A DNA stretch of 64,000 nt from Microbotryum violaceum (GCA_001244265.2 CDLV01000007.1:1798001-1862000), one strand, 5' to 3'. Shown: positions 19,001-62,279, numbered from the stretch's first letter. The notes: generated by a model from the sequence alone, not told the origin. Program-made: numbers and translations.

Positions 19001-19026
19001 TGTGGGGCACATTCGCCGCGGCGAGA

Positions 19027-19049
19027 GGCGGAGGAGGACCCCGAAAACC
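19027..19049 (+). mobile_element. 8-bp TSD GGCGGAGG plus short AGGACCCCGAAA terminus (left end of the putative 43-kb unit)
   Basis: GGCGGAGG (19027-19034), then AGGACCCCGAAAACC, then G18. The same 8-mer directly follows the right TIR (62158-62165). Confidence 0.75.
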
Positions 19050-19162
19050 GGGGGGGGGGGGGGGGGGTGGCGCTGGCGCCTCTGGCTCTCCTGCTCCCTC
19101 ACTCACCAGCCATCGAACGTCACCTCAACGCGCCGGCTACTCATTCGAGAAATCGATCAATA

Positions 19163-21340
19163 ATGCACTTGCTCTGTCTTCCGCCCGAGATTCTGCTCGA
19201 GATCGTGGGCCAATTCGACTCGGTGTTGACGCTGCTTGCGTTTGCGAACCTTTGTCGATCGACCTACTCGTTCATGCACGAGGCTTCGGAACAAATCTAC
19301 CGCCAACTGTGCTTCAAGATCGGCTATACGGATGTCACCAGCTACGGCGCATCGAGCGCGATCGACACGCAATGGCGAGGCAGGTGGCGCATGTCGCACC
19401 GTGACCCCGGACTCGAATTGCGCGAAGCGCTCGGGAGGCAGAACAGTCGACGAAAGCCCATTTACCTTGACTGCGTGAGACGGTGGGAGCGGTTCGGTAA
19501 GATTTAAACTGGGCAAAAAAGGAGGGCAACCGGGGAGTGTTGTCTACTGACACGCGCGAAACGTCGTTTTGCCGCTTCAGCCAAGATGCGATTCTTTCTC
19601 GATCGCTCCTGGCGGCTGGGCGAACTCATGCTCACCTCGACGAAGATCGAAAATGGTGGACCACCCGGCGGCATCCATCGCTTCAAAGTCGACCCGGATT
19701 CGGGAATCTACTTGACCACTGGTGCGAATTGTAGGAGTCTCCTCTTGCTCATGGGGGATATCGTTTTTCCAGCATTGATCGCCGCAATCTTCAACGCCTT
19801 GATGCAGCCGGCATCGGCGCCTTTCGCGACGACGGGGTCGCCGAATGGCTCTGCAGTGAACCCACTACGATGTACGCTCACATTGAATTCAGGTACGTTT
19901 ACTCCTCGTTTCAAGTACGTCTGGAACTGTGCTTATTGCATCCCCCGTCCTCGCGAATTGACGTCCTCGCGAATTGACTGTTTGTGGGATAGCCAAGGAT
20001 ACATCGGGTGCATGGCGGGCGAACAGCACATCATCTGGCGACGCAGCGACATCTCGACACCCAAAGCCCCCATTTCTCAAGCCCGCGCCAAGTTCCTCGA
20101 ATCTCGTTCAATTAAGATCGGGGGACCGAGTGGTCGCGAGTTTCGACCGTTCGCCGAGATTGCGGCGCCAGGCTCTTTGAATGCCACCAAGATGCGTGAC
20201 CCCTATTTTATCGGCTCGTCTAATCAACGCCGTGCGCTCTATCGTTTCGATTACCATCGTGGCACAATGTCCACCTTGGACCTCTCGCGCCTTTGGCAAA
20301 CCACGGGAGAGAACGCTTTGGCGGACAGTACGATCACTTACGTCGAGATCCTTGATCGAGATCATGTCGTTGTCGCGGGCAGGAAGTCCATTTCGATTTG
20401 GCACCCGGACCGTGGCTGTGTCGCTCTGTTCCCCCCAGCCGCACCCGCTTCACGCGTCACCATTCCTCGCGCGCACTACCGATCTAACGCCAAGGCGCCC
20501 ACATGGACCGCGGTTCATCACGATCTCCGACACGGTCACCTGATCGCAACCAGCATGGGAGAACGAGGTGTGACAGGGTCCGGGAAATTAATCTGGATCC
20601 CCAATTGGAAGATGCTCATCAACGGCAGCCCTAGCGAAGTGGAAGATGCCACAGTAGTGCTGACCACGGTATGCAAAAACTCGCAATTGGTTCATTTGAC
20701 CAGCGAGCTGACGAGAAGTCTACGTCTCCTTCCTAGAACGCCGCGATCATCCAGTTGTCGGTGGAGAACGAACGGGCCTTGTTCGTCACCCAAGACTTCT
20801 CAACCAACATTTGTGCGCTCTGGCTGCTCCACCTTCGTCCGTTTACGTCGATTGAAGACTTCAAAGAAAACCCTCCTGTGCTGGTCAGTCCGGTTCCCTC
20901 TCGACTCTGCCCTCCACGTAAAGATCCTGACAGCATGTTACGCCCGCCGCTAGATGTGTCTGCTGTTCCCCCTGCCATGTACGCAGCCCCCTGCCCGTAT
21001 CGAGATGACGATCGATGAGATCATGTTCCCGTGCTGCTCCGAGTTCATGCCCCCTCCGGGTAGAGAGGCGAGGGAGGACGACTTGTCGAGCTGGTATCAA
21101 CGCGTGTTGAACCTCGCCAGAGGACTCAAACCTGTCGACATGAGGTGGGAGACGCTGAGCGCCGAGACGCTGTGGAAGGACCCTGGCAAACCCAACCCCG
21201 CCTCGGGATCTCCATCAAACGACCGAGACGCGCTGCGAGAGGTCGAGAAGCAGTGGGCGTCCGTCTTGTCGGAGGCGGATGGCACAATGGACAGCATGTG
21301 TTCGCTTTCGTTCGGAACAGATTTTTGGGCGCTGTGTTAG
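19163..21340 (+). CDS. F-box domain protein (multi-exon)
   Basis: N-terminal MHLLCLPPEILLEIVGQFDSVLTLLAFANLCRS F-box motif and downstream long exons separated by GT-AG introns. Confidence 0.75.
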
Positions 21341-21500
21341 TGAAGACCTCTCCCTGAATTCCGCTACAGTGTGTTATATTTATCTTCTTGGTGCCTAAAA
21401 TAACATTTGTTATTATCTACTGGACTTCTTTCGTTTGTTCTTCTCCTACCATACCTTACACGGGCACGCACAATACAGTCAAGGAACCTTGACCGTTCAG

Positions 21501-23234
21501 TCACGAGCTCTGGGCCCGGCCAACCTTGGCCTTCTTTTCACGCTCTTCATGTCCCGCAATCTCTTTGGCCTCTCGCTGTGCTTCCTTTTCCTCCCTTTCC
21601 CTCTTCTCTTCCGCTTCCTTGGCTTTTTTCTCTTCTTTCTCCTGTGAGAGAGATATCACCCCCAACGTAGATGGTTCAGTGTCGGCCTCTCAGTGCCTTC
21701 GTCGAGAATGGCGATCCCTAACCCACCTTGTCAATCTTGGAAAATTTCACATAAGCCGTGTCCGTCTTCTCAGCTCGGAACTCTCCTAAGTCAACGGAAT
21801 TTCTGAGACAAAGCATGAGCCCAACCACTCGTCAGTACCATGCTGAAATGAGCTCAAGCATCGTAAGCGCGCAAGATACCCTTTGGGAGTGTTCAAAGGT
21901 TGGCTCCTCAACTTTGCGATCTCGCCTCGAGTCTTGAGTGTTTGAACGTCGGGGGCAAAGTAGGATTCCCCTGCAAGGGTGAGCAGTATCGAGCTGCCGA
22001 CGACGGCCGTCAACCAAAATCGGTACTGCGCAGCGTGATTCCATTGGGTCAGTCAAGATTATTCATCCGCTGATCGGAGCGCTTATCCGTCAAGGACTCA
22101 GCTCTCCAGGTGTGAAGCAGATTTCCCATCAGACTCACAGTGGAATACCACCTAGGTGTCCACCCCCAAGTCGTGGCTCGTTGATCAAGCAACCAAGTAC
22201 CGAAGAATCCGGCCCATTGAGTGATCAGAGCCATTTGAGGCCCAAGGACCGGGAGGAGCAACATCGATCCCCATCCGACGATCACGGGTCCGATACCGGC
22301 GATGTAGCGCGTGTTGCCGACCACACCCCCGAATTTAGCGAATTCGAGGCCCTGCGCAATGTGAGGGTTGGATTCGGTGGTCAGATATTGTGCTCTCGGT
22401 CTTTGCCCAGTGCGGGGAAGTCGGTTTAAATATAAATGTCGACCCTTACCCAATGAATTGCACCGAGGAACGACAAGATGACGGCACCGTAGCTGATTTG
22501 GAGATGCTGGACCGAGCTGAGCAGCTCCATCGCCAGCTCGGCTTCGACGCCCGAGGCGTCTACCTCACACGCCTGAGCGGCTGATCGGGCGAGGTAGACC
22601 GTCGCCAATGAAGTGCCGGCATCTGTTTGAAACATACAAGTCTCAGTAACTTAGAACTGGGGTTTCTTGCACCGACTTTCGGGCGGCTGACATGGCAAGA
22701 GACCGGCTCCACCCCACACGAGGGCATCACGAGGGACTTTCTGGATAACCCCGGCAATACTTTGCTGTAGGCAGCATTTGCCAAATAATTCAAGCGTTGA
22801 GCTCTCTCTAAGTTAGACCCATTTCAAACACACTCGACGACGACCTCTTGATCAGTACTCACCATATCACCCTTGACGCTGTCGATTGCGCCAGCCTTTA
22901 GGTTTTCCTCCGCATTGCCGATCTGGCCGACCGAGGCATTCGCACCAGCCATAGCACCTCCAATGACGTGCCCCAACTTGTTCGCTTCGTCCTTGGCATT
23001 ATCACCTAGCTCTTTGAGCGTCTTGGACCCAGGTTGTTGCGACACGGAACCGGTTTCTTGGGCGTGGGAAGAGGGGTAGAACGAACTGACGCTCGAGGTG
23101 CTGAAGGAGCTTCGCGACGTCACTGCTGTTGCTGCGCCCATGTGGGGGAACGCCGAACCGGTTCGATTGAGCTGTCGAGGCAACACCTGATGGAGTAGAG
23201 CCGTGCGGGACGGCAGCAAACGGAGGGACGACAT
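21501..23234 (-). CDS. DUF3429/TMEM69-family mitochondrial membrane protein (multi-exon)
   Basis: Mitochondrial-type presequence; GGAGLLP, QISYGAVILSFLGAIHWG-LEFAKFGG and WTPRWYST-YRFWLTAVVG; charged C-terminal exon ending TGA at 21501-21503. Confidence 0.85.
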
Positions 23235-23730
23235 GCTTTGAGGGGCGAGGATGATTATGACTCTTTGTAGGTACGGTGGGAGGGGAAGAAGATAAGGCTC
23301 GAAAGAACGCTAGGGCGTTATGGCTGCCAATTCGGAAGCCCGCCCAATGGTGAAGGCCGTTTGGTCGGCGGGCAAGCGCCGCCATGACGTCGCGCAAGCG
23401 CAGATTCCGCGATTGGGGTGCAAAGTTTCCCCACCTCCGAGTGCTCGGATCAAGATGGGATGGTTTCCCTGGGCAGAGATTACCGCCTGCATCAGAGGAA
23501 ACCGGACTGAAGATCGTCTTCAATCGCGGCTGGCTTCCAGTAACGTCAGAGCTGGGCCTAAGCGAATCTTCAACTCGAACAGGTTCTGCGAAGCCGGAGG
23601 CCGATCGATCGTTGCGCGTCAGGACGAAATCCAGCCCCTGTGTTGGATTTCGGCGAAAAACAGATGTGGAAACCAACTTTTACACACATTTTCATGTTTC
23701 CAGGCCGACCTCCTTGCCCAATTCCCCAAC

Positions 23731-25492
23731 TCAAGCCTTGCCAATACAAAAAGTCCACCCATTCTTCTTCCAATACCCGTCCTCCTCCCACCCATCCAAC
23801 CTTGGCCACCCGCCACTCCACCTGTTTCTCACTGGTTCCCACTCCACCTTGACCATTTCCCTTCCCAACCCCATCTCCTTACCAAAAATCTCATTCAGAT
23901 CGTCTGTTGATTCTTCCTCTGTCTGAGCGGTGAAGAGGATGGGGGTCCCGGCTTGGAATAGGCTTTGGAGTGCGGGTTTGTGGTAATCTGGTGAGGTAGG
24001 ATCGAGGAGGGATTGGGAAAGGGTTGAATTGAGAGAGATAGCCAAAGTGGGGATCGACTCATTCAGAGCGGGCCAAGACCCTTGGTGGTGGGTGATGGAA
24101 CGCGTTCGACCGCTTTTCGTACATGCTGGGCAGAGGGGTAAGGGCACTGTTCGAGGTTTGGGAGGAGCAGCTCCACTGGGTGGTGAGAGAGAATGGGCGA
24201 CCAGTTCAAGATGGTGAAGCGAGGGGAGAATATGTTGTAGTTCTTCAAAAGCGGGTAGGATGGAGGAAAGGGTTTGGTGCGTCTCCTCGAGAAAGATGAG
24301 CCTTAGCGACGAAGCCGAGTCGATCGTCGAGGTGGGGAAGAGACGACGCAGGGAGGCCAATATGGTGAACACGGGAGAGAGAGCTTCGACGAAAACGCCG
24401 TACACTTCTGCTTGGGTCGAACGGGGTGGTGGCTCGACGGTCGAGAGATACTCGGGCCAGTTGGCTGGCAAGGCTGCTGGTTTGTTAAGGATTCGGGTCG
24501 GGACCCAGAGCGAAGGTGGGCTGCCTTCCCCTCCGACAGCGATGGCATGTCGGAGGTAGAATTCATCGATTTCGTTGGAAAGCTGGAACGTCTCGCACTG
24601 TGCATATATGAAGGCGATCCTGTCAATGTGGGGGTTGGGCTCGACAGAATCCGCCGTGGCAGAGACTGACCTGGGTTTTCCCGTCGTCACCCTTGATTTG
24701 GAGATGTTGTTCTTTGGTCTCCTTCTCGTGCCATTCAGAGCACCAAGGCATAATCCGACACTTGGAGCACACCCGCCAGCTGTCACCTTCATGCTCAGAG
24801 TCCCTGCCTTCGACATCGGCTTCTCGATCCCCTATGCGAGAGAGAAGCGGGGGTTTCCAGGACATGAGCTCGGACCTCAGCCAGTGACGAAGAAACAAAT
24901 CTCCCGGCTGACAGCATACAGCACATCGCGGCTCCCTCCATAGTAGTTTCGACTCGAGCATCGTCGGCTGACGTTTGAGTGCAGCGGCCATCAACTCGTC
25001 CTCCAGAGCGAAGTGAGCCCGGTGGGTCTGTCGTCGATCCGAAATGGAACTGTGGCAAACGGGGAACGATAAACACCAGATCAGACTTAAGCACAAGTCA
25101 TCGGAATACGAGATGAATACTCCTTGAACAGACTGACGAGAGTTGATAAATGGGTGGTAGGGTAGCCTGGGGTCGCTTGCGCATCGCACCGAATGCCCGA
25201 CAGAACGACTTGTGGTCAGGCCACTCCTTGAAGGAGCATTCCTTGGAACAGAATCTACAGTCAAGCAGTGGTGCATGGGTCAGCTTACTACCATTGGGCT
25301 GCCTGCGGCATGCTAGCCATGACCAGCCGTGTATGCCGGCTTGGTTCTCTGAGGGGTGGAGTGCTGTCGAACGTACTTTACTCGTTTGCAGCCCGAGCAG
25401 CGCGACAGAGGGGAGGTATTGGGAGGGGCTTGGTAGCAGCCCAAGCATGCTGTAGCAGCGAATGCCACGTTGGGTACCGGTGCAAGATCCAT
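23731..25492 (-). CDS. MYND zinc-finger protein with MSS51/ZMYND15-like C-terminal domain (multi-exon)
   Basis: CLGC..RCSGCKRVK-FCSKEC..EWPDHKSFC, a second degenerate finger, and a C-terminal ..PILFTAQTEEES..RNRWSG..YWKKNGW. Confidence 0.8.
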
Positions 25493-25709
25493 CGCTTGTT
25501 TGCACGTGGAATGGAGCCGAAGAGGTCAAAAGTGGGGGGTTGGTTCGACCATTTCCATTTCCACGATCGATGGCTGGTCCAGATCTGTCCAAATTTGCCC
25601 AAATATCGTCGCGGTCACCGGCCGGTCACAGGTCACCCCCCACCGTGTTGTCGTTCACCCCCACACCGTACGCTTCCGCACTTCGCTTACTCCTGCGTGA
25701 CCGTCCACC

Positions 25710-26783
25710 ATGGCGCGTCAAAGGAACGACAATCAACTCGCCTTGCTACAAAGCTCAGTCCGCATGCTGCAACTCGTGCAACGCGTCTCGGCCGGCATCT
25801 TCTCGACGTTCCTGATCGTCCACCTCTCCGCCCCCGTGATCGCGGCCATCACCATCACGGGCGATGCCGAACAGCAAGCCTCGGGCTTCATGCTCGTCGG
25901 ACGCGAGTGGTACCAGGGAGGAGGATACAAGAAGGAAGGCGTCATTGTCTGGTCCAGCGTGGCCGTACACGTCCTCTCGGGCATAGCTGCTAGGGCGGTC
26001 AAGAATGCCGAGAGGAAGGAGAGGAGAAAGAAGAGGAAGGCCGGGGTCGAACTGGCTGCACAAAGATACCAAGGTGAGCACGTTCAAGCCGATATTGACG
26101 GGCACTTACTCAGCCGTTGCTATCTTTGATTTGGAATCACAGCCCTCGGCGTAAACAGCCACGTTCCGACGATTGCTTCGTCCTCGGCAACCACGACAGA
26201 CGACTTTGACCCTGATCGGCTGGACGACGAAAACGTCAAAGTCGACCTGTCGACAACCGGAAAGGAGCGAGCTGAGAAGGCTGCGATCCCCGTATCGTCG
26301 GCTCTTCCGGCCCCTCAGCACCTAGCAGGCTACCTGCTTCTCCCGTTTGCGATTCACCACTCGATTTTGCATCGTATCCTTCCCCTCAAGCACAACCTCA
26401 CTCCTTTCTTTTCTTATTCGTTCGTCGGCTACTCGTTGTCGCAATCGGCGCCACTACTTCGAGCGATCTCGGTGGTTGGCTACGTCGGAGTCGCAGGCTT
26501 AGGGGTGTACCACGCTCTGGCCGGGATCAGGGTTATGGCGGACCCGACGGCGCCGGGATCGTTGCGACCGCAGTCCCGCGCACGGTCTGATCCAGAAGAT
26601 GGGGAAGGCTGGGCTGTGGCTCATCCGGGTAGGAGAGCTTGGCAAATCGCATACGTCGCGATCGTCACGACGATCGGGGCGGGGGTGGCTCGGATCGCCC
26701 TGTCAACGAGTGGGGCGGGCAAGGTGCCTGTATGGTTGATGGGCAAGTACGACCGAGTGCTGCAACAAGGTGCTGGCATGTAG
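25710..26783 (+). CDS. Mitochondrial adapter MCP1/DUF1691-family membrane protein (one intron)
   Basis: QRVSAGIFSTFLIVHL..FMLVGREWYQ..VHVLSG; QHLAGYLLLPFAIHHSILHR..FSYSFVGY..YHALAG. Confidence 0.8.
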
Positions 26784-27263
26784 AAATGCATTCATGCGAA
26801 TACCATAAAGGAGCTTTGTAAGGATTACCGGGAAACTCACTACATGATCGCATCGATTTTGGATTTGCGGGTAGCCGCGGCCATGGCCGAAAAGCGGAAA
26901 GATTCTGACTTTCGGGGTGAGCGATATTCATCAGGCGTCGTACCACATGTTTCCGTGGTTCACTTGATCGAGAGACATCGAAACGGCCCCTTAGGCGAGT
27001 GCACTGCTTCTGTTCGCGGCTTGATAGATACACGGCGCTTTTGGGCCCGATCACGGTTCGGATTGGCCAAACGGGTTAGTCCGCTCAAATCCGGGCCGTC
27101 GCAGCCGAGTCAACGCCTGTCCTCGCCTGTCAACGTTCGTTCGGACTTGGCCCTCCGTCCGCGTGGTGTCGCTCCTCTTCTGCCGTGCACTTGTTCATCG
27201 CTTGCCACCCACCCTCACTTGCGGCCACACTCCATCACACGCCTTACCCGTCTATTCACAACG

Positions 27264-29549
27264 ATGGTCAGAGAAGTAAGTCCGTGACCTCCTTCAGTGA
27301 GAGCACCACCTCTTCAGCCTTGGACCGGCCTTCGCCGGCTTGCCTTCTGGGTGGAGCCTCGGCAATCCGTCGTGGGCGTACACGTGCACACCACCAGCCA
27401 CATTTTGAGAACTACTGATGAAGCAGTACGAGGATCACCCGAGGCTGACACACGTTGCTCACCCCACCCGATGGGTTCGAACAGACCAAGCTATCGTTGA
27501 CGCTCGACGAGGCCCTCGCTCACCTCACCACCTCCGAAGCCGGCGCCCCTTCCACGTCAACGTCCTCGACCGCGACCAAAGGCAACTGTCTCCCCATATC
27601 GGCCAGGCTACCTGCTGACACCCTCACCCCCGTCATCGCGTACCTGCGGCTCACCAATGGCGCTAGGTCCGGTGAGAGCTTCCTGATGGAGTCGGTCGTC
27701 AGGGGTGAGACCGGTGGTCGTTGGAGTTATGTCGGTGCGAGTGAGTAATCCTTATTTCGCGGTCGGTCCGAGATAAGCCATATCGAGTTCTTGTATCTGA
27801 ACGATGCTTGCTCCCCACCCCTCCCCACCACCAGACCCCAAAAAGGTGCTTCGTACAGGAGCCAACTTTGAGTTGCAGGGTGATCCCCTCAAGCACCTCG
27901 AGAAGGATCTCGCGGACTACTCATTCATCAACGTCCCCGGTGCACCTCCATTGACGGGTCAGTATTTTACGTTGCTCTGCCCCTCTGTTCCCCAATGGGC
28001 GGTTGGACGAAGCCCGTGCTCGCCGAAAAACCGCTCCCAGGCTGACCGAACTCTCCACCCCCGTCCGCATTAGGTGGCATGTTTGGCTACGTCTCATACG
28101 ACTGCATCCACTACTTTGAACCCAAGACCGCTCGCGAGCTGTCGGACCCGCTCGGCATCCCCGAATCCGTCTTCCTTCTCGCTGACACGCTGATCGCGTT
28201 CGATCACCTCTTCCAACACGTCTACATCGTTTCCCACGTCTACGTGCCCCCTTCCACGCCTTCCGAACAGGTCGAGAACACAATCAAGACCTCGTATGCG
28301 AAAGCCAAGAACCAGATCGAGGGCATTGTCGCGCTCGTCTTTGCCACCGACTCGCCTTTGCCCATGCCCGCTCAACCCAAGATCACGATCCCGGCCAAGG
28401 AAGCCGTTAGCAATGTCGGCAAGGCTGGATACGAAGGCTTTGTCACGAGTCTCAAGACCAACATCGTCCAAGGTGACATCATCCAGGCCGTGCCGAGTCA
28501 GAGATTACGTCGCGAGACCGATCTGCACCCCTTCAACGTTTACAGGTCCGTCTTGCGAATGTGGTTCATGTTCAAGGAGGAAAAATCTGACATTCGGGTC
28601 GAATCCCTCCACGTCGAGCAGGCATCTCCGAGGTTTGAATCCTTCCCCGTACATGTTCTACGTCGACTGCGGTAACGAGCTGTGCCTTGTCGGTGCCAGT
28701 CCCGAGTGCCTCTGTAAGGTCGAAAAGAACGTTGTCACGAATCACGCCATCGCCGGGACCGTGCGACGTGGCAAGAGTGCAGAGGGTGGGTAGCTTTGCA
28801 AAGTAGTCAATCCAGTTGGCGCCATGACTGATCGCTTGACGATGACAATTCGCAGAGGACGAGATCTTGGCCGCCGAGCTGCAGGGCTCGCTCAAGGACC
28901 GGGCCGAACACGTTATGCTCGTCGACCTCGCTCGCAACGACGTCAACCGCGTGTGCCGACCCGAGACGGTCAAGGTCGACAGTCTGATGCAGGTCGAAAA
29001 GTTCTCCCATGTCATGCATCTCACCAGTCAGGTCTCGGGCAAGCTGCGAGACGGGCTGACTCGGTACGTTGCTTCGTTTTGCTCGGGTGTCTTTATCGAA
29101 GCACACTCGCTGATGTCGAGTTCCGCGCGCCCATCGTCTAGATTTGACGCCTTCCGTTCCATCTTCCCTGCTGGTACTGTTTCTGGTGCGCCCAAGATCC
29201 GTGCGATCCAACTCGTCGGTGAACTCGAACAAGAACGAAGAGGCGTGTACGCCGGTGCGATTGGCCACTTTGATTTTGCGAGCGATTCAATGGACACGTG
29301 CATTGCGATTCGTACGATGACCTTCTTCAAAGGTGTCGCTTACCTCCAAGCTGGGGGAGGTATCGTCTTTGATTCGGTCGAGGAAGATGAGTACGTCGAG
29401 ACTATCAACAAACTTGCTTCTAACGTCAAGTGCTTGAGCGAAGCTGAGGGTGAGCAGAATGTTTGCGACGGTGACGCATCTGGACAAGTTCTGACGCGTA
29501 TGCCTGAGGATCTCTCACAGCTTATCATGCATCGTTGCAAGAGGAGTAG
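27264..29549 (+). CDS. TRP2: Anthranilate synthase component I (multi-exon)
   Basis: [95 protein letters not shown] and [18 protein letters not shown]. Confidence 0.97.
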
Positions 29550-29804
29550 AGAGGTGGATGGCTGAGCATCGTTTCATGTCTATGGAGGGACTGTGCCAGG
29601 GGGTCGTGCATTTTGCAATTTGGAGTTTTAGAAATGGATACGATCGTTGCTTTCTCTTTGCAACTACAGGTTTTGCTATTACATCTGTCAAGAAGAAAAT
29701 TGTGTGCTTTATGTACTGCCAACACGGAAAGATGGTTGTGACTATGCATACAAAATACCTTGCATCGTAGAGCTGGACCGTAAGCCTGCTGCGCCTCCAC
29801 CCCC

Positions 29805-30512
29805 TTACGCTTGAGTGACCATGCAAACGATGATGACGATTGCGAGCGATCCTACAACACTCGTTCCCAGAAGGCACCAAGCGCACCTCTTGGCCCACAA
29901 CAATTCTTCCTCACGAAACGAGCGCATACATTCGCGCACCGAATTGACTCCCGCCGAACCATCTTGCACGACTCCTTGGACCCCTGCGTCTCTGGCACCG
30001 ACGTTGCTTTCGATCGACGCCAGCCATTTCTTCTCTGGGTTCTCGGGTCGCCAGATATGCACCATTCCGAGCGCCCAAGCGATGAAGGGGGGTACGAGAC
30101 CGAAGTAGAAGAGACGCTCGGCTCGAGTGCGAGGCGTTTCGCTGTAAGTCGGTGGGGGAGCTTGCTGGTCTTTGGAAGACCCGAGGGTGAGGGTGTGGTC
30201 TTGGGAATCGAGGGAGTCGCATGTTGGGTAAGGCGGATGGAAGCTAATGGGGTACACAGGGGATCGTGGTTCGTATTTAGGGAGACGGGTCATCGTTGCG
30301 GCGGATGTAGCCCCGAAAGACGTGTTGGGGTCGAAATTGTCGGTCGCGTGAGCAGGCTCAACGCCGCACGGGTTGGACGAGGTCGTCGCTGATTGAACCG
30401 GGAGACTCTCTTGCATCCCGCTTCCGCCGGGTGTTGCGTTCGTGGTGGTGGTAGAGGTTTGGATCGTCACTTGGACTGTAGAGGCCGAGTTTCGCTTTTG
30501 GAGGTACGTCAT
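29805..30512 (-). CDS. Hypothetical membrane protein (235 aa; PPxY motifs, hydrophobic segments)
   Basis: Single ATG-started ORF with LPKY/PPPTY motifs and LFYFGLVPPFIAWALG..EEELLWAKRCAW plus a C-terminal TM helix. Confidence 0.7.
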   Translation of the reverse strand: MTYLQKRNSASTVQVTIQTSTTTTNATPGGSGMQESLPVQSATTSSNPCGVEPAHATDNFDPNTSFGATSAATMTRLPKYEPRSPVYPISFHPPYPTCDSLDSQDHTLTLGSSKDQQAPPPTYSETPRTRAERLFYFGLVPPFIAWALGMVHIWRPENPEKKWLASIESNVGARDAGVQGVVQDGSAGVNSVRECMRSFREEELLWAKRCAWCLLGTSVVGSLAIVIIVCMVTQA

Positions 30513-31326
30513 TGGGACCAGGCAATCGAGAGGCGCCAGAGGGGGCTTGAGGGCGGAAATGGAAGCGTAAGCTACGACGAAGTGGGGGTGAGAAGACGAG
30601 ACCTCGGGGAGCGACTTGAAGGAACCTTGCAGTGAGATGTGGATGAGAGAAAGGAAAGAAAGAGAAAGGCCAGTGACTTCCGGTGATGTCTCTCATTTCA
30701 ACGTAGCCTCCTTCACTTCATCATCATGTCGAGCTGGTGCGAGCGGATAAGCCTCGTAGCCGAGAGGGGTTCCAACGACGATGATGAGTGGGTGATGGGG
30801 TGGCGAGTCTGGCGCGCGGCGACGGATGACGCGCTGACAGGCGCCGGCGCCGGTCGCGCAGTGTGGGGCGCACGGTGCTGCCAGTATTTGATCGAAGCAA
30901 GAAAAGTTATTGGAGACGTCACATACTCCTATCACTGGGCGGTATTCTTGGACTTTACTTCAACACATCAGAGTGATCTCCCTCCACTGCCCCCAGGGTG
31001 CTTAGCAGGACTGGGTGAAACGAAACTTCGTCCGGTGACTCGGAAGATCGCCTTCGTATGGAGTCACTATTGTGATTCGATTTACTCCTTTCAGTGGCCA
31101 CAGCAAATTTACTTAAAGTGGTGGGAAAATGATAGCTGCTACCGATTCCCAAGATACAGCCTCGAAGCACTAGTGGCTTCGCTGGGGCCTCTGACCGGTC
31201 TGTAAGGAGCTCAGATTACTCAGCAGCGGCGTAAGTAAAGGCGGGTTCCTCGGTAGTGCTCTCGATGTCGCGTGACGAATAGACAGTTCCAAAACCAGTC
31301 GATTGTCAAGTTTGAGTCAAGAGTGG

Positions 31327-34300: not shown

Positions 34301-34594
34301 GGGTAATACCCGACGGCCTGGTATTCCCAAGTGACGGCTGGAATTACCACGCGCTTGGGTAAAATCAGTGCGCGCGTGGAAATAACACCCTGCGCCCTGG
34401 AAATACCCAGGCGCGTGGTAAAACCAGGACCGTGGTAAAACCAGGCGCCCTGGAAATACCAGGCTGTCGGGTATTACCCAAGCGCGCTTTTGTAAATACC
34501 AGACGAGACCTCGGGTATTCCCCTCATTAATGAAGTCTATCAAATAAATAAATAAACCGAGGGTGGAATTCCCCGCTCTCTAGGGCCCTCAGTG
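31327..34594. mobile_element. Non-autonomous CACTA/CMC-EnSpm element (CACTG termini), 3-bp TSD
   Basis: TIR CACTGAGGGCC; TSD TGG (31324-31326 and 34595-34597); dense subterminal GG(T/A)A(A/T)TACC repeats at ~31345-31520 and ~34185-34520; internal ORF remnants. Confidence 0.92.
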
Positions 34595-44394: not shown

Positions 44395-47657
<3,263 letters not shown>

Positions 47658-50600: not shown

Positions 50601-53600
50601 GTGCGACTTGTCCCCCGCCTTGAGCTTCAGCTTGTAATTTGAGGTTTCGGGTCGTGCTGCTAGGACTTCGTAGGGGCCGTCAAACCGGGGAAAGAGTTTG
50701 GCTGACCGTGCTTCCCCATCGGCCTTGTACCGCAGTCGTCAATCCCGCGAGTCGACTAAGACCATGTCGCCAACTGCAAACCCGGGCTCCGGTTTCCTCG
50801 CCTTGTTGCTCTGGTTGGCCTGTCGGATCTTTGCAATTGCCAAATTGTCTCGGGCTTCCGCAACCGCTGCTTCACGTTGTTCCACGATGGATTTGACTGC
50901 CTGTGACGTGGTTGAGCCCCCACTGGGGTGATCGGTGTCAGCTCCGGCGTGAACCCAAGTACCACTTCAAATGGCGTCTTCCCCGTCGACCTGTTCATAC
51001 TGGAGTTGATCACAAACTCCACCGTAGCCAAGTGCTTTGACCAGTCATTTTGCCGTCGGTTGACCATTGTTCGCAGGACTTGGATCACGGTCCGATTTGT
51101 TCGCTCGCTTTGGCCATCCGTTTGTGGGTGGAAAGACGTCGATGTTGCCAGTTTCGTTCCCAGCTGGCCCATGTACGCTCGCCAGAACTCGCTTGTGAAG
51201 AGCTTGTCGCGGTCGGAGACCAGCACTCGTGGCATGCCGAAGTGTCGATGCCACCCCTCAAAGAACCGGTCCGCCGTGGTAGTCGCGTCGTCCGTCGTGC
51301 GGCAGGGGATGAGGCAAACGTAGCCTGAAAGGCGATCTGTTACCGTAAGCAGTGCGTCATTACCATTGCTAGGTACAAGTGGCCCGACAAAGTCTAGGCC
51401 AACTTCCCGCATTGGCCGGTCAGGCACATTCAAATTGTGGATCCGACCGGCAAAACCGGTGCCATGCATCTTCATTGTCTGACAAGCAGCACAGGACTCA
51501 ACGTAATCTTTGCATGCATCCTTCATTCCCGACCAGATAAAGTTGCGGCGTAGGTGTTCATACGTCTTGTGTAGTCCAAAATGGCCTGCGGCATCATGCG
51601 CGTCATGTAGCGCGTCCTCCCAAAAGTTCCCCGTCTTTGGCAGGAGGATCCGTCCTTCGAACCGTGCGATTCCATTGTCGACTGAGTAGCCTGGTGTTGA
51701 GTCAATGTTCTTGATAGCTTGTTGACATTGCGGGTCCTTGCGGTAACCGTCCCTGAGTTTGCAAAGGAAGGCAGGATCGAGAGTTGCCTCTGCCAGCACG
51801 TTGACATTGTCGCTCGCCTGGCGGCCGGCTGTGGGTTCCTCCGGGAAAGAGTAACGACTCAATGCATCAGCCACTGTGTTCTCTGGACCTCGTACATATA
51901 CAATCTCGAAGTCGTAATCGGCCAGTCGTTTGGTCCATCGAGCTTGTCGTCGTGAAAGGCTTGGTTGCTTCATGAAGCCCGCCAAGGAGTGGTGGTCTGT
52001 GAGGATCTTGAATCGAACACCCAAAAGGTCCGCCCGCCAGTGATGAAGGGCGTCCACAATTGCAAGCAATTCCATCTCGTGGGCTGCATAGTTGCCTTCC
52101 GCTGGGTTGTACTGTCGTGACCAATAGCCTGCCGGCATGGCCGTCTGCCATTGCTTTCCTTGACTGAGTGCCGCCCCGATTCCCCAATTGCTCGCGTCCG
52201 TCATCAGCCATAATGGGTCGCCCTTGTCGGAATGGTCAATGGGATGTAGAGAAGGAAGGTTGCCCACCAAGGACTTGATTGCCTCAAACGCCTTGTCGTG
52301 CTCTCCCGTCCAGCCTTCGTCGACATGCACCCCTTTCCGTGTCAGCGGGACTAAAACCGCCGTCAAATCCGCAAGCTTGTCGATGAACTTCCGCAGATAC
52401 TGCACCAGACCTAGGAATCCCCGCAATTGCTTCACCGTCCTTGGTCGCGGCCACTGTTGGATCCGCTCCACCTTGTCAGGATCGACCTTGATGCCTTCCC
52501 GAGTGATCTGGTGGCCGAGGAAAAAGCACTCGGCAGCAAACAGTTCCGTCTTCTTCGGCGATACGTACAGATCCGCCCGTCTCAGCGCCTCCAGGACTAG
52601 TCGCACCCGTCGTTCATGTTCCTCCAAGGTGTCGGCAAAGATTGTGATGTCATCGAGGTACACGAAACACACGCTCCCGATAAGGTCTCCGAGTGCCTCG
52701 TTGACTCGGCGCTGATGCGTTGCCGGGGCGTTGCAGAGTCCCATTGGCATTACCGTCCACTCGTACAATCCCCACGGTGTCACAATCGCCGTCTTCCGGA
52801 TGTCTTCCTCGGCCATCTTGGTTTGGAAGAAGGAGTTTGTCATGTCGATCTTCCCCCAGAATCGCGCGTTTGAGCAGACCGACAGAATCTCGTCCGGAAG
52901 TGGTAGAGGTGTGCGATCTCGGACCGTCCCTTCGTTGAGTACTCGGTAGTCACAGACCATGCGTGGTTGGATTGACGGGTCCTTATCCATACCTTTCTTT
53001 GGGATGACAAACGCCGGGGACGCAAACTCTGATGACGACTTTCGAAGGCGGCCATTGGCGACGTGCTGATCAATCAGGCGCTTCCAGGCTTCCCGGTAAC
53101 GGTGTGCCGCTCGATAACCCTTCAAGTTCGGTTTTGTTGCTCCGTCCTTCAGCTCGATTCGGTGTCGGACCGGTGATTCATACGTCGAAACCGGAGGAAT
53201 ATCCCCGGGAACCGATCCGCGAACTCGACCCGTAGCTTTGCCTCCCGCCGTCGCAACTCCGTCAACTCCGTTTCCCTTTGCTGGACCCCATCGATGTAGG
53301 CAATCACTGCACGCCAGTTGATCCGAGCTTTATCGCTTCGTTTGGCATTCCTCGCCGCGGCTCGCTGGGGTGGGGTCCGAAGACCGGCGCAAGAAGGTCG
53401 ATCTTTACGTCAGGCATGGTCGGATGTGGCACCAGGATCTTGTGTGCCGCGAAGTCGATGGTAACCTTGTGTTTTACAAGGAAGTTGAACCCCAGTACCA
53501 CTTCCAAGGGCTCCTGCAGTTTAGCCACCTTCAGAATCGTGTGTCCCGCTTCCCATGCGCCATTCTCGAGCGTGATCGGAATCTTTACAAACGAGGTAAC

Positions 53601-55752
53601 ATGAAACGCGCGTGCTTGGCCTTTGATTGCAGTTTTGACCAATGTAGGAACAAGGAGACGATGCATGACTAACCCCAGTTTCTCAACCACCTTATCTGCG
53701 ATAAAGGAGGAAGAGGCCCCAGAGTCAGCAAGTGCCTGCAACGTCTTTGACTTCGTGTTGTTGTGCAGAGTGATGGGAATGGTGGAGATGAACTGAGGGG
53801 CGTACTCGTTTTCTTCGTCCGTTGAGATGTCGTCTTCTGAGTTTTCCACAATTTGATGGAGGGTGTCGTTCTTAGCCGCTTTCGCCGTCTTCTTTTCGAA
53901 TTCGGCCCACCCCTCCGGGACATCCGGTGCCTGCTGCCAGTTGGCTGTACAGTCGCTCGCGCGGTGATCCGTGTTGATGCGTCTGCAGCTAAAGCATCCC
54001 TCCTTCTCCGAGAGATAATCCTTCATCGGGTCCGTGAGTCTCGTTGGCCTGCGTCGAGTGGTCGCCGAGGTCACGAAAGGTCGGCCAGAGCTGGTCTTTG
54101 GGCTCGTAGTCGAGGTTTGCGTTCGGGGAGTTGCTACAGGACGAACCGCTATGATCACATTCCATTGGGATCGTGCCAATCGCTCGAACACCTCGTAAGA
54201 TAATGTCTTGAGCTTGGGGAGCGCCGCCTTTGAAGCCGCCACGTAGTCTAAATCATCTTGGTGTAGGCCAGTACCCAACAGAAGGTCGTTCTGTCGTAGA
54301 ACAACGCTCAATTGAGGGTCCATGTTGAACAGTAGGATCTTGATGAACTCGATGTCGCTGAGGGCGGTCTGGCCGAGCTGCAGCTGTGAGGCCTGAAGTC
54401 CCGAAGCCCACGTCGCGTAGTCGTGGTTGCCTTGGTGGCTGTGGCGAATACGCTGCTCTGTCGTGAAGGCGAAATCCAAGGGTAGTGCCTTGCGGATGAA
54501 GGCGACCTTAAGCTTGTCCCACGTGCGTTCCTCCGTCGCCGTCACCAGCCAATCCTTGAGCGCCTCGTGTTCAATGTGGTTGGCGATGAACATTATCTTT
54601 AGTCGCATGTTCTTCACTTGGTACTGGAAGAACATGTTGTCCATGTCGTTGAGGAATGCGCGGATCGAGGAGAGAGTGAGTTTTGTGCCGTTCGCAAGCT
54701 TGGACACGCTGAGCTTCATGCCCCTTGGCATCGTTGCAACCTCCTGTTCATCGTCCAAGCTGTCCTCCCTTTCCTCTGGTGCCAATGGTGGCGCTGGTTG
54801 AGCGGTGGAGTTCTTGCCACGCGCCATGTTCGTCTGTTACCGTTCGTTGTTGTTTGTTCGTTCCGTGGGTGTGTCGCTGGCGCACGTGGCAGTGTGCGTC
54901 TTTGACCGGTGTTAAAAAAAAAAGTGTAATACACCCCGTTGGAGTGTACACCTGAGCGACGACGACAAGGATCACAGGACCAAAGTATGTAGAATTGACA
55001 CTGGACACTTGTATCAGTCGCTGGTATGACAATGCCTTCTGATCCACCTTGTGCTCACCTGGACACTCATATCAGTCGCTGGAGAGAGACTAAGAGTGCC
55101 CAGGCGCGCGTCCCCTCTTCCTAAGGCCCAGGCGCACGGGCCTTACACCTATGCATCAATGCTCGCTGGCGGCGTTATCTCCTGGAAGTCGAAGCAACAA
55201 TCTATGATTGCTACATCCACTACCAAAGCCGAAATCCTCTCTGCATCCTCAGCCACTCGTGAAGCAATCTGGCTCCGTCGTTTGGCTGGTGATGTCGGCA
55301 TTCCACAAGCACAGCCTACTATCATTCAAGAGGACAACGCCGCATGCATCCAGATCGCCAAGGATCCGGTCGATCACTTGCAAACCAAGCACTTCGACAT
55401 TGCTCATTTGTTTGTTCGAGAATGGGTTGCTTCTGGCGAGGTCGAACTTGAATACTGCCCTACCCACGTCAATGCTGCGGATATTATGACGAAGCCTTTG
55501 GGATTTCAACGCTTTGATCAACTTCATGCGCTACTTGGAATGGTCTTGTTAGTCTCTTTGACCAGTGGGAGTGTTAGAAGTGGGGTCTGAGAGCCTAACT
55601 CATTGCTATTAGTCTTGGTTATTCTGCGCGTGCGCCTATCTTTGTCTTTGCGTCTTTTTTACTTCTGGGTTCCTTCTCCACGCTATTCTCATCATCTCAC
55701 TTGTGTATCTCGGAGCTGAGTCATGGAGTACCTCTTAGTCCTTGTTGCAACA
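47658..55752 (+). mobile_element. Ty1/copia element (LTRs 47658-47923 and 55572-55752), degenerate, RT missing, interrupted by a gypsy element
   Basis: PBS GGTTATGAGC after the 5' LTR; gag with CSRCKALGHERG; protease WIIDSG; integrase HRKLGH..CFSCIQAK..EQNGQVER; RNase H ISWKSKQQ..AADIMTKPL; PPT AGTGGGAG. Flanks ATTGA/GATCG do not match. Confidence 0.93.
50045..55147 (-). mobile_element. Near full-length Ty3/gypsy chromovirus (223-bp LTRs 50045-50267 and 54925-55147)
   Basis: The LTRs differ at one position that I could see. gag-PR ORF 53304-54827 (CFSC..HRASDC, ALADSGA); RT-RH-IN ORF 50756-53125 (VYLDD, MTDAS, VSDRD); chromodomain 50241-50552. A T-rich tract replaces a tRNA PBS. Flanks TCTTG/CCTAT do not match. 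Confidence 0.96.
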
Positions 55753-56266
55753 GATCGGATGTTGAACGTCAACACGGTGAGAGACTCAATCATGATTAAA
55801 TCAGATCAGCGCTGCCCCTTTCAAATTCCGGCACCTCGGACCTGTAACCCCCGGAACTGTTGCCCCCTGAGTCGTCACCCCCTGATGCACCGTGGATCAT
55901 GGCGGATCCCGCCCGGGTGACACGTCGGTTGCCGGGTGCCAAGCTCGAACGAAGGCGTCGAGGACTCGTCGAGGTCGTGGTTGCCGATGTTCCCGACGTG
56001 CCACCGGACAAAGGCGAAGACGAAGTCGAAGTCAAAATCAGGCTCGATGTTGAGGTTGAGGTTGAGGTTGAAGGCGGAGACGGCGCTGATCCCGTAGCCG
56101 TCGGCGAGGGTGAGGGCGGCGTCATAGACGAAGTCGAAGTCAAAACCGGGCTCGCAATGGGCGCCGCCGCCGTTGTCTGTGTCCTGTTCTCTGACCCAGC
56201 GGTGGCGTTTGTTGAGGTGGCGTCGCCCTCCGGTTTGGTGGAAGCGACCAATGCGCCGTCAATATT

Positions 56267-56423
56267 TGTTGGAATCAACAATGATCCCAAAAATGATCAA
56301 CAAAAGAATAAGGACAGCTGGACCAGGAGTCGAACCTGGGTCGCCTCCATTAATTGGAAAAGCTTTGACCACTAAGCTATCCGGCCCCTGATATCAGTGC
56401 AAGGTCTACTAACACCTTCAACA
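56267..56423 (-). mobile_element. 157-bp solo LTR containing a tRNA-like sequence (Helenus-type TRIM LTR)
   Basis: TGTTG...CAACA termini; 5-bp TSD ATATT at 56262-56266 and 56424-56428. Confidence 0.88.
56315..56386 (-). ncRNA. tRNA-like cloverleaf / Pol III A+B box promoter inside the LTR
   Basis: GGCCGGA-TA-GCTT-AGTGGTCA-AAGC-T-TTTCC-AATTAAT-GGAGG-CGAC-CCAGG-TTCGACT-CCTGG-TCCAGCT-G, followed by T-rich tracts. Confidence 0.8.
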
Positions 56424-57165
56424 ATATTGTCGTCCTCATCGGTATTGTTGGCGCTCGCTAGGTCAGTGGCAGGGTTAGTGCGGGGACCCAACTGGATCAT
56501 GTTGGTACCGGAGGCACGAGAGGTCAGAGGTGTAGGCCCGCCGTGCTTTCCGTTCTTTCCGGCAACTCGGAAACCGCCTGTCGGAGTCGGAGTCAAAGTC
56601 GAGGTGCGGGCCCCTGGAACAGGGGCAGAGGGGGCGGAGACCGATGTCAACGCTGGCTTCCTGCAGGTGCCCCATTTGTGGCCGGCGCGATTGCATAGGC
56701 CGCAGTAGTGCGTCTCGAATTCGTGTCGCAAGCCGAACTTGGTACCGAGGATTGCGATTTCGTGGGGCAACGCGGCGTTGAGTGCCGCCTTTTGCGTCTC
56801 GGCCAAATCTTGGAAGAGGTCAGCAGGTAAGCGGAAGTACACGCAGTGGTACCCATCTTCGGTCATGGCCATCGGATTGGTCGAATCGGTCGCGAGGCCC
56901 CGCTGTAATTGCATCAGGGTATAACCTTGCATACAACCAGCGCAACCGAGCGAAGCAGTGACTGCATCATCAAGAGATTTGCGGAGAACAGAGGCGGGAA
57001 TCGCCATGAACTGAGGAGGGAGGGTGAATCGCACCTGAACAATGCGGTCCAAAGGGGAGGTGCTCGGGAGCTCAGTGACCATCTCCTTTCCATGATAGCG
57101 GAAGGGACCCGCTGCAGCGGCTTCAAGACAGGCCTGGTCAGATTCGAAGACGAGCTCGGACACCG

Positions 57166-58848
<1,683 letters not shown>

Positions 58849-59131
58849 TTTTTTTTTTTTTTTGGGGGCTCATAAATTGCAATCCTTCGGGTTGGCTGGG
58901 ACCGCTACAAAAAGAGCTAAAGGAGGTTATAAAGCAACGACGGCAAGCAGTTGGGTAAAAGTCAAACCCCTGCGCGCAAAGAGCGCTGCGCAGATCAAAA
59001 CCCGCCGAGCACCTAACGCGGACTCCAACGGGCGGTGAGTACTGCTGCCGCTTCACGTCCCAAGAGCGGGAGCAAAGATACTCGAAAACCAGGCAAGAGC
59101 GCCTAGAGAAAGAAGGGGGAGAGTATACAGA
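58849..59131 (-). repeat. 5'-truncated family A LINE tail with poly(A)
   Basis: T15 followed by ~270 bp near-identical to 42672-42938. Confidence 0.9.
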
Positions 59132-59133
59132 CG

Positions 59134-59440
59134 TTTTTTTTTTTTGCAGAAACTGTTCATCATATTGCCCCCAATTCATGTTCCCCCTATTTGGCCTACG
59201 GAAAAAACTAGATGGAAGTCGACGATGATAACACAAACCGCCCGCAAGATGCGAGAAACGGGCCGGTGTCCACCAATCCGATACCTGGGATTCAAGTGCC
59301 CGAGCCAAGCGGTTGCTCCCCCCAGGAGACGAATGAGAGAGAGAAGAGAAAGAGTAACAAAATAATTGACTAACGACAAGAGACCCACCCGCCGTCACTT
59401 CCCAACTCGGTCGAGACAAAGACAAGAGAGCGACTGCGCA
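59134..59440 (-). repeat. Family B poly(A)-tailed 3' end, copy 2
   Basis: T12 followed by a match to 42187-42480. Confidence 0.88.
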
Positions 59441-59530
59441 GCTACCCTGACCCGAATCCCGAAACTTGCCCTACGGGCCTCATAGGGCAAAAGCTGCCGA
59501 CTGCCCTCCATATTTTTCGCGCGCGCATGT

Positions 59531-62157
59531 GTAGCCATCTTCGGTAATCACTTGAGTTAAGTGGCTGTGAGGGATTAGGCCGATTAGATATTGAAGGGGC
59601 GCAGGTTCAACTCCTCCATAGTGCGCGCTGTTTGTGGCGTTTGTTTTAGGATGGAAGAGTCGAGTTGCAGTGATAAGAGAAAAACCCGCACTCCGTAACA
59701 AACGGAAGGTTTTCTAAACAGGAGTTATGAACAAGTAGGGTGGGAGGGAGGAGCTCAAAAAAAATGGTCAATCGGCTTTGCTCAAAGAGCGCAGGTCCGA
59801 TTAGTAACTAAACACTGCAACTGACTTGGGGGATAGGGCATACCTTTGCTCGAAAAGCGCAGGGCGATGGCAGGGGAGGAAGGCGACGTGATAGGTAGAC
59901 ACGGCCAAACGAGGTCTGTATACAAGGTAGCTCCATGAGTCAACTTGCCCAACAAGGACAGTCGTGATCCGGAATGCGAACCTTAGCTAGAAACAGCGAG
60001 CCACGATAGAGCGAGTCTCGAAAAGTTTGCCCTTGCTCTAAGCAGTGGATGCGATACGACCTTGCAAAGCAGCGGGTATGGCGGCTGCTTACAACGTAGT
60101 GGCAGGCTAGCTCATCAGTCCAACTGTCCAACAAGGGCAGAGGGCTTACGAGGGATGTTACCCACTTTGGGTGAGTAGAGACTGGCAGGGGGGTGCCGGA
60201 ACCACAACACGAAATGCTGAGGCGTGCGGGAGGACGAGGGAGAGGGAGAGGAAGGGCCCGCGCGCGCCAGTGGGTGAGCAAGGCGGGAGGCCCAAGGGGG
60301 CCGAGAAGAGTGCGTGCTGGCACAGGGTCCAAAGAATGCGTGTTCGAAGAGTGGAGCGCAAGCGGGCCCCGTTGGGCCGAGACCAGCGCGCTTGAGCTGT
60401 CCACGTCAAAATCTTGCAGCAAAGGCCGAAAAGACTATCCATCTGTTCCGCTTCACTTTGGTCCGAGATTGGAGCATAGCACGACAACATCATCCCATGC
60501 AGGCCTACTATTTGAACGATGCCTTCGATTGATCATTGCCACTCACCAACATGAACATGATGATCGCCGAGCTCCTCGCCTTTGATGGCGCTCCCGCCGA
60601 CGCGTCTTTTCACATCGAGTTGTCCAAAGACGAGCTCACCCACTACTCGACCTTAGCATCTACTCGAGGCCGTTGAGAAAGCAAACAGCTTCTCACGACG
60701 ACCAATTGTGCGTCCACCAAGCTCAACTATCCAAATTTTGGTCTAAGCTAACGCGTGTTTGGTTCTACACAGCCCACACAATTGAAACTTCCGTCTCAAG
60801 TTGTCGATGCTCACGATACCAATCTCTCGCTGAACTGGCCAACCTGATTCAATTGCCCATCAAGGTGCTCATAAGTGTAGCCACCTCAAGCTGTTCTACT
60901 CAAGGGAGGCCGATGGAAGCGAGCGACCCAACTCGCGGAGAGGCAGGCGTAGGGGTTAGCAATACCAAGGAAGGACGCAGTACAGCACATTCATGCGTCT
61001 TGAAAGGGTTGGTACAGTCCATGGGACCATCTCGCTGCGAAGACATGGCAGGCACGACGAGGAGCTTTTGCTGGACTGGAGGTGACCAGATGGCCCAAGC
61101 ACTCACAACACACGAGGATCCAGAAGAATGTCTATACTGAGGATGGTCGCATTCAGGTGAGTTTTTGCTGAATTTAGGAGTGAAGGCAACTGGATCTAAT
61201 GTTTGGAGAAACAAGCAGACGGAGCACTAGCACAACGCTATCCTCATTTTGGATCGCTTGACGGCGGAGCTGTAACCACTACCACAACATCGGAGATCGG
61301 ATCTCTGGTCTGCTTTGGCCTCAAGCGTGGCATGCATTCACTCAGCTGCGATCAAACTGCCTATGGAGAAGAAGTGCTGTCCATTGGAATTGGTACGATG
61401 CCTTGAATGGCAGTTGAGCTGTGACGTTCTCACTTGACACAGGCCTTGTCTGCTACAGTGCGATACATCTACAGCAAAGTGACAACAGCGCGCTTGCGTC
61501 GTTGGTTGTACTTTCAAATATCGTCGTACAGGAGCTTCGCCTCATCAAGAAAGCTTGCTCTTCTATTCACCTCATTGATGGCACTATGCCGTTCCGCATG
61601 ATTGATGGTCGACAGGTCATCGAGTCCTTAGGCCCGCCAAAGATCACATATAGTTCAACCACGGACGTTACCTCACTTTACCCCGACGAGCGCATAATCA
61701 GCACGAGCGCACCATGCCGAGCAAAGATTTGCCTCGCTTCGGAGCGTGCCCGGCCTGCGAGATGCCGCCGGCAGAACCTCTACAAGCCGCAAATGCCACG
61801 GCGGATACAAAAAGCTCAAGTTCAGCAAACCGATTCTGACAATGAAGTAGCGAGCCTGCCAGCCAAGCAAGGAAGGCTTGTTTGATGCCTGGAGCCACGC
61901 GCGACACCAGCCGAAGCGACGCGCGCCGCAAGCCACTTTCGATGTTTCGATTGGCCACCGCGTGCCCGCAAACGCTCGGAACGCGTTTTTGAGGGCTTTT
62001 GAGCGATTTTTGGAGCATGTAGAATACATTTTGATACACAGTTTGATAATATTTCCGAGGTGCAGGTCAAATTTTGACATTTTGGGGCCAAAATAGGGTA
62101 AAAACTTTGACAAAAAGGCCGAAAAGGGCGTTTTCCCACATTGCTTTCGGGGGTCCT
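59531..62157. mobile_element. AGGACCCCC-TIR family copy 2 (inverted relative to copy 1); right TIR intact, adjacent left end missing
   Basis: 60445-62157 is the reverse complement of 3908-5630 and 59531-59608 is the reverse complement of ~5633-5709, with ~840 bp extra between them. It ends CTTTCGGGGGTCCT, followed by GGCGGAGG. Confidence 0.92.
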
Positions 62158-62279
62158 GGCGGAGGGACGAGGCGGGCCGGCTGCTACAGGCTACTACAGG
62201 GCCAGCGGGCGCTCATGCTCAGCTCGATCACCCGACTGCCGGCTCAACCGCTCCTCAACCCTAACCCCCTCAAAGCACG

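Follow-up and report, generated by a model that had tools for sequence, protein, structure and literature searches.

Junctions and content of a 43-kb interval

We analyzed a 64,000-nucleotide stretch of Microbotryum violaceum DNA (GCA_001244265.2, CDLV01000007.1:1798001-1862000), hereafter the window, in which an interval of 43 kb (positions 19027 to 62165) is bounded on both sides by the same 8-bp sequence and by an end, or end-like stub, of one family of terminal inverted repeat (TIR) elements, here designated family E. The interval lies between the cohesin gene SCC3 on the left and a FAHD1-like hydrolase gene (FAH) on the right; its host genes are confined to positions 19163 to 30692, and the remainder consists of repeats (Table 1). 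An earlier interpretation of the window based on its sequence (the sequence-only reading) had proposed that the interval is a transposon carrying six apparently intact host genes. Three of these genes (DUF3429, MSS51_C, and TRP2) gave Pfam matches above the cut-off and the TM protein gene was identified by its orthologues, whereas the F-box-like and MCP1_TM matches remained below the cut-off.

At the right junction, a complete E end (62143-62157, ...GCTTTCGGGGGTCCT) is followed by GGCGGAGG; at the left junction, the same 8-mer is followed by a 15-bp stub. The 8-mer is identical at the two outer junctions, and 8 bp is the length of the target-site duplications (TSDs) of family E. Three true E ends have an identical 15-bp core, AGGACCCCCGAAAGC, from which the stub differs by one missing C and one G>A change. 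The right end bears subterminal repeats, whereas the left end consists of the 15-bp core only, with these two differences. The sequence-only reading had described inward-facing termini flanked by the same 8-mer, a left end that was short and had one C fewer, and a second E copy (copy 2) without its own left end, and the sequence bears this out.

By itself, the stub carries no significance: a 13-nucleotide end within two edits is expected 3.76 times per shuffled window, and the core 15-mer with three or fewer mismatches was observed 5 times, against 2.41 expected, in the window. The adjacency of the 8-mer and the stub is beyond chance, however, as a stub directly behind the same 8-mer was seen in none of 300 Markov shuffles (~9e-5 expected per window) and a 20-mer spanning both was seen in none of 100 shuffles. 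A coincidence, in which the stub resembles an end by chance or is an old end of other origin behind the same 8-mer and only the inversion described below is real, would have in its favor the frequency of the single components (about 3.8 end look-alikes within two edits and about 3 occurrences of the GGCGGAGG 8-mer per shuffled window) and the two differences in 15 bases of the stub where 3 of 3 true ends are identical. We nevertheless give this explanation next to no weight, given the rarity of the joint pattern and the fact that copy 2 lacks its other end, so that a stray end is expected somewhere. Because the pairing of the junctions is significant and copy 2 has no far end, 19027-19049 and 62143-62165 almost certainly represent opposite sides of a single site at which a TIR element of a family with 8-bp TSDs inserted.

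An assembly artefact at the left junction, which the sequence-only reading had allowed for, is excluded by a contig of run X9 (12396 nucleotides; the run is labelled as a second organism) that is unbroken across 18858-23000. The contig of run X7 begins within the 18-G run at the inner edge of the stub, and the X11 contigs are too fragmented at this junction. A contig of run X13 (4521 nucleotides) matches 19077-23000, continues to the left with 110 unlike letters, and then stops; the share of sampled words present was 0.45 in X13 and 0.95 in X9, and the two runs have the same organism label. In some genomes, a second form of the locus (~2.5% diverged) therefore exists, with other sequence upstream of the F-box gene.

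Two other origins of the left junction were considered and rejected. The 18-G run is not a polypurine tract preceding a long terminal repeat (LTR), as the sequence from 19068 onward is single-copy by contig depth. Transport of the stub junction by the adjoining 3.5-kb repeat copy A (3' transduction) is given very little credence, since the hairpin-bearing end of that repeat is the opposite one and the flank of its twin, copy B, differs.

Copy 1 of family E has the exact 15-bp core and GGTCGGCT on both sides and defines the same terminus and TSD length as the junctions of the interval, as the sequence-only reading had stated. The TIRs of the family are 15 to 27 bp long, and two 8-bp TSDs were identified. 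Contigs of all four runs (4/4) join 3899 to 5996 at high depth, with 8 letters fitting either side. These joints indicate that the host repeat has other copies with an empty site, and they identify copy 1 as a discrete insertion from a family generating 8-bp duplications. The likeness of copy 2 to copy 1 ends at 59532, and about 270 to 286 bp of its far end are absent.

No Pfam domain was identified in six open reading frames (ORFs) of copy 1 or in ORFs 3985-4479 and 5713-6189, and the E ORFs examined with Pfam contained no hAT transposase domain (BED finger or dimerisation domain). The E copies appear to be nonautonomous. An 8-bp TSD is typical of hAT elements, and other superfamilies can also give 8 bp; by its TSD length, E would be a candidate hAT family. 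In X7, X9, and X11, contigs also join 4129 to 5923 at single-copy depth, which suggests that an E deletion derivative of ~300 bp is present elsewhere in the genome. A Helitron_like_N fragment lies beside copy 1 (6101-6763, minus strand), and the piece 7004-7622 recurs with 96% to 98% identity as the insert at 59609-60441 within copy 2.

The six-gene block is bracketed by the inverted twins A and B, of which the sequence-only reading had made no mention. In a self-BLAST comparison, 15463-18942 aligned with 39641-36158 in inverted orientation at 99.5% identity. The twins differ by no substitutions and only 4 small indels over ~3.3 kb, whereas the last 220 bp contain all 4 substitutions and an indel of a 37-bp repeat unit, a pattern that suggests gene conversion between the copies or a very recent insertion. 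Copy A and the 8-mer to its right are 24 bp apart, and the stub junction is inside the A-B bracket. No TSD was detectable at copies A and B with any pairing of their flanks. Sixteen ORFs from element E, the two twins, and ORF X, an ORF located beyond copy B, gave no Pfam match; a 351-codon open frame across copy A was judged to be a chance frame in G+C-rich DNA and not the F-box frame.

Table 1. Positions of genes, repeats, and junctions in the window
Feature	Position	Strand	Evidence or remarks
SCC3/IRR1 cohesin gene, 5' part (left host flank)	3-854	-	Pfam SCD domain
E copy 1	3908-5995		TSD GGTCGGCT at 3900-3907 and 5996-6003; sequence, contig joints
Repeat copy A (left bracket arm)	15463-19003	+	3.5 kb; unclassified; no TSD seen
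Flank f	19004-19026	+	23-24 bp of unique DNA from copy A to the 8-mer; within X9 contig
Left 8-bp TSD	19027-19034	+	GGCGGAGG
Stub, remnant of E-family terminal-repeat core	19035-19049	+	AGGACCCCGAAAACC; without subterminal TTGACATTTTG repeats
18-G run at inner edge of stub	19050-19067	+	Read as a rearrangement or deletion junction
Six-gene host block	19163-30692	mixed	Pfam, locus tags; coordinates approximate
F-box gene	19163 (ATG) to 20953	+	Pfam F-box-like, below cut-off
DUF3429 gene	about 22049-22564	-	Pfam, above cut-off
MSS51-like gene	23731-24816	-	Pfam MSS51_C, above cut-off
MCP1-like gene	about 25310-26783	+	Pfam MCP1_TM, below cut-off
TRP2	about 27449-29565	+	Two TRP2 domains above Pfam cut-off
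TM protein gene	29805-30512	-	Named orthologues
Repeat copy B, inverted twin of A (right bracket arm)	36065-39641	-	Self-BLAST
ORF X (338 aa), gene of multicopy repeat	39968-40984	-	90% cluster membership; no Pfam domain
Nested retroelements and other repeats	42175-59453	.	Self-comparison, ORF scans
Repeat R	42175-43571 and 57194-59453		
Copia-like pieces	46796-49763		
Ty3-type LTR element	50044-55148		LTRs of 225 bp, 1 difference
E copy 2 body	59532-62157	+	92% to copy 1; foreign insert 59609-60441; left end missing
Right 8-bp TSD	62158-62165	+	GGCGGAGG
FAHD1-like hydrolase gene (FAH; right host flank)	62280-63336 (end approximate)	+	Several exons

Reversal of the gene block relative to other Microbotryum species

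Homology searches assigned the window to Microbotryum. Gene order in related species was read from the positional locus tags of named Microbotryum proteins, which run along the contigs. The window SCC3 matches BQ5605_C029g10698 of M. silenes-dioicae at 100% and BQ2448_2529 of M. intermedium at 81%, and its orthologue in the Lamole assembly of M. lychnidis-dioicae is MVLG_06555. Exon 1 of FAH is 99% identical to both MVLG_07097 (M. lychnidis-dioicae Lamole) and BQ5605_C029g10655 (M. silenes-dioicae), 94% identical to Chr4-2g06900 (M. saponariae), and 88% identical to BQ2448_2522 (M. intermedium).

In M. saponariae (Chr4-2), the tags run from FAH (g06900) through F-box (g06901), TRP2 (g06905), and TM (g06906) to SCC3 (g06909). 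The offsets are the same in M. intermedium, where FAH (2522), TRP2 (2527), and SCC3 (2529) are on one 1.96-Mb contig and F-box and TM were not found. In M. silenes-dioicae (C029), the order is FAH (g10655), F-box (g10673), TRP2 (g10677), TM (g10678), and SCC3 (g10698), with 17 gene models between FAH and F-box, 19 between TM and SCC3, and 42 from FAH to SCC3. The TRP2 and SCC3 tags are adjacent in two further Microbotryomycetes and three apart in a third. This tag order indicates that the six genes have long been located between FAH and SCC3, the F-box gene being closest to FAH and TM lying on the SCC3 side. In the window, the order (SCC3, F-box, ..., TRP2, TM, FAH) is the reverse of that in the three relatives; by tag order, the six-gene block is ancestral at this locus and reversed in place in the window.

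These results contradict the central proposal of the sequence-only reading, that a transposase moved a block of housekeeping genes, as all of the block genes tested map to the FAH-SCC3 interval of M. saponariae, M. intermedium, and M. silenes-dioicae, an outcome that the reading itself had set as grounds for rejecting a moved block. The F-box-TRP2 block had been expected to lie elsewhere in relatives, but the F-box gene g06901 of M. saponariae is the direct neighbor of FAH g06900. A second suggestion, that the block was translocated into an existing element, holds insofar as, after rearrangements, the block is flanked by both junctions of a single insertion site; the block itself was never elsewhere, only reversed.

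In the Lamole assembly, the F-box gene MVLG_06554 adjoins SCC3 (MVLG_06555), giving the same reversed order as in the window, and the 53,032-bp contig with these two genes also carries TRP2 as well as TM and X proteins identical to those of the window. An assembly error would place the segment between the identical 3.5-kb inverted repeats the wrong way around, the true order then being that of M. silenes-dioicae. Segments between long identical inverted repeats are easily misoriented, and the short-read contigs used here cannot span the repeats. However, the Lamole contig has MVLG_06554 beside MVLG_06555 independently, and we consider such an error very unlikely.

When 19004-36064 is flipped back, the outgroup gene order is restored, and repeats fill 26 kb from FAH to F-box and 22.8 kb from TM to SCC3. 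These two intervals fit the tag spacing in M. silenes-dioicae, on the assumption that the sister species share most of the repeats here, which is suggested by the 42 models between FAH and SCC3 in that species.

Proposed nested inversions and alternative histories

Probably, the 43-kb interval is not a mobile unit but is the outcome of two nested repeat-associated inversions around one TIR-element insertion site. After the split from M. saponariae, repeats would have filled the short spacer between the divergent F-box and FAH genes, and a member of family E would have inserted 114 bp upstream of FAH, duplicating GGCGGAGG; flank f would accordingly represent old FAH-upstream DNA. A first, gene-free inversion would then have turned the flank, the 8-mer, and the first 15 bp of the element, placing them by the F-box promoter, with the G run as the mark of the joint. 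Finally, in the M. lychnidis-dioicae lineage, 19004-36064 was flipped, presumably via recombination between the inverted copies A and B. The stub junction would thereby have been turned a second time, producing a "TSD-end ... end-TSD" layout in which it faces the right end across 43 kb.

The first of these inversions is suggested by the E ends themselves. With 19004-36064 flipped back, both ends have the sequence ...TTTCGGGG(G)TCCT, with CCTCCGCC after the one and GGCGGAGG after the other; they then have the same direction, are ~23 kb apart with only repeats between them, and carry reverse-complement 8-mers, and the stub junction is beside copy B. We take this layout as the mark of a small inversion that occurred earlier and was mediated by repeats. 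A plain inversion with a break 15 bp inside a single element gives the same flipped-back layout, and a break inside the element would be the leading, if tentative, cause of this step. The other two candidates, recombination involving a pair of inverted E copies and reversed-ends or hybrid-element transposition, would be about equal and each somewhat weaker. A reversed-ends inversion is described as leaving one element inside and one just outside the inversion with 8-bp repeats at both ends (PMC8225341), and either hybrid-element insertion or ectopic recombination between inverted copies as giving exchanged TSDs (PMC2775673).

Overall, it is possible but doubtful that the two E ends with reverse-complement 8-mers arose before the A-B flip, in the arrangement presumed for M. 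silenes-dioicae, by reversed-ends or hybrid-element transposition. If so, the locus would hold a natural alternative-transposition inversion in a basidiomycete, later disguised as a gene-carrying transposon by a second inversion. A direct reversed-ends event leading to the present layout was rejected, since, in the mechanism as described, the ends both have their TSD copy on the same side (PMC8225341).

The window shows an exact TSD-end ... end-TSD layout with the TSD length of family E, and the block is reversed compared to its relatives, both of which would also follow from a local macro-transposition. Two E elements would have flanked the block in its old orientation, their outer ends would have been cut, and the piece would have been reinserted in flipped orientation at GGCGGAGG a few dozen bases away, one element later being cut down to 15 bp. 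Maize macrotransposons of 10 to 28 kb that excise and reinsert have been documented (PMC9910405). However, this history requires a prior state with almost nothing between F-box and FAH and all of the repeats between TM and SCC3, whereas M. silenes-dioicae has 17 and 19 models in these positions. In addition, the stub is without subterminal repeats, neither element is complete, and the inverted twins around the block would be a coincidence. The 8-mer-stub junction is also present in the X9 contig, an observation that would exclude macro-transposition if the X9 genome has the old orientation. We regard macro-transposition as quite improbable.

A single rearrangement with three breaks would need just one element. 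Following the E insertion upstream of FAH, cuts between SCC3 and TM, between F-box and the flank, and 15 bp inside the element would have released the block, which was then rejoined in flipped orientation inside the element without involvement of A and B. The G run could be filler at the break, and the region is repeat-rich. Such an event also predicts, however, that F-box and FAH have hardly any sequence between them in M. silenes-dioicae, with which the tag spacing disagrees, and it leaves the twin-repeat bracket unexplained; it is unlikely. By comparison, two features of an inversion between inverted repeats are present: opposite homologous copies stand at the ends of the segment, and the segment is reversed relative to the relatives.

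Several points weigh against two nested inversions. The breakpoints were assigned to copies A and B from their position alone, and the lack of TSDs at these copies means that no exchanged TSDs support the assignment. The first inversion is itself a reconstruction, to which the ~270 to 286 bp of element missing at 59532 and the unexplained 18-G run belong. The repeat content of M. silenes-dioicae was deduced from tag spacing alone, and both M. lychnidis-dioicae assemblies may be of one strain. On paper, two inversions that restore a textbook transposon layout are also less simple than one macro-transposition.

Matching TSDs and facing ends around host genes are usually taken as proof of movement. 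The locus calls for caution in this respect, as the same picture here most likely stems from two nested inversions around genes that never left their locus. The inversion of six housekeeping-type genes is very young. M. lychnidis-dioicae has it, whereas its sister species M. silenes-dioicae, judged by gene numbering, does not. It is bracketed by near-identical repeats, and it is through events of this sort that rearrangements accumulate where Microbotryum genomes are rich in repeats. No new class of mobile element is revealed; nested repeat-associated inversions around a transposon site are of a known kind, of which this would be a new instance.

Known systems and further repeats in the window

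The closest parallels are found among transposon-associated inversions. In the Galileo-type inversions of Drosophila buzzatii (PMC2775673), as here, opposite copies of a repeat are located at the ends of a reversed segment and secondary repeats crowd the breakpoints, and the "exchanged" reverse-complement flanks described there are seen at the flipped-back E ends. In contrast to Galileo, copies A and B are without TSDs, and the uninverted state is known here from gene numbering alone. The reversed-ends inversions of maize Ac/fAc (PMC8225341) resemble the flipped-back state in having two ends in the same direction, each with a reverse-complement 8-bp repeat, with one element inside the inversion and one just outside. 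However, the outer element is only a 15-bp stub here, no transposase or autonomous copy was found, and the layout also arises without a transposase.

As in the maize Ac macrotransposons and composite insertions (PMC9910405), two same-family ends with an identical 8-bp TSD enclose a gene-containing stretch of tens of kilobases. Identical TSDs of family length are indeed present at both outer junctions. Two outward-facing, transposition-competent ends are not, as the left one is a 15-bp core without any subterminal sequence, and the "cargo" is not absent from the site in relatives but is ancestral in three of them; in M. silenes-dioicae, the six genes are located outside the interval between the E junctions. 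Among the matches listed for macrotransposition and macrotransposon literature, no title concerned a fungal macrotransposon.

Starships, the giant cargo elements of fungi, are similar to the interval in being large and in having host-like genes in a fungal genome. The interval differs from them in its TIR ends and 8-bp TSD, its basidiomycete host, and a cargo that was not acquired. No tyrosine recombinase was identified in 70 ORF translations across the window, in agreement with the sequence-only reading, which had seen no Starship captain, although short or intron-split genes could escape such a search.

The DNA transposons of Microbotryum are described as mainly Helitrons and TIR elements, and M. 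intermedium as being without TIR elements (PMC10502011); this description fits the setting proposed here. ORF X belongs to a 90% identity cluster whose members, at least 13 in number, are scattered over numerous chromosomes in M. saponariae, M. silenes-dioicae, and M. lychnidis-dioicae, indicating that it is an unclassified repeat gene and not a host gene. In an ESM Atlas search, ORF X matched only unnamed clusters.

A repeat of ~266 bp occurs in three copies (47658-47924, 55572-55753, and 9669-9935). The two direct copies of it flank both the Ty3-type element and copia-like gag/integrase pieces, in what looks like a nested pair of LTR elements. Homopolymer G runs of 12 to 18 bases were found at five positions: 19050-19067, 42660-42675, 48178-48191, and, on the minus strand, 44580-44591 and 12107-12118. 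The run at 44580 is just before a TG... start and resembles a polypurine tract ahead of an LTR. A near-perfect palindrome is located at 31366-31484 (57-nucleotide arms and a 5-nucleotide spacer), and clusters of CCTGGAAATACC-type repeats are found 3 kb from it, at 34214-34479. The palindrome and these clusters may represent another TIR element with subterminal repeats, located just beyond the TM gene.

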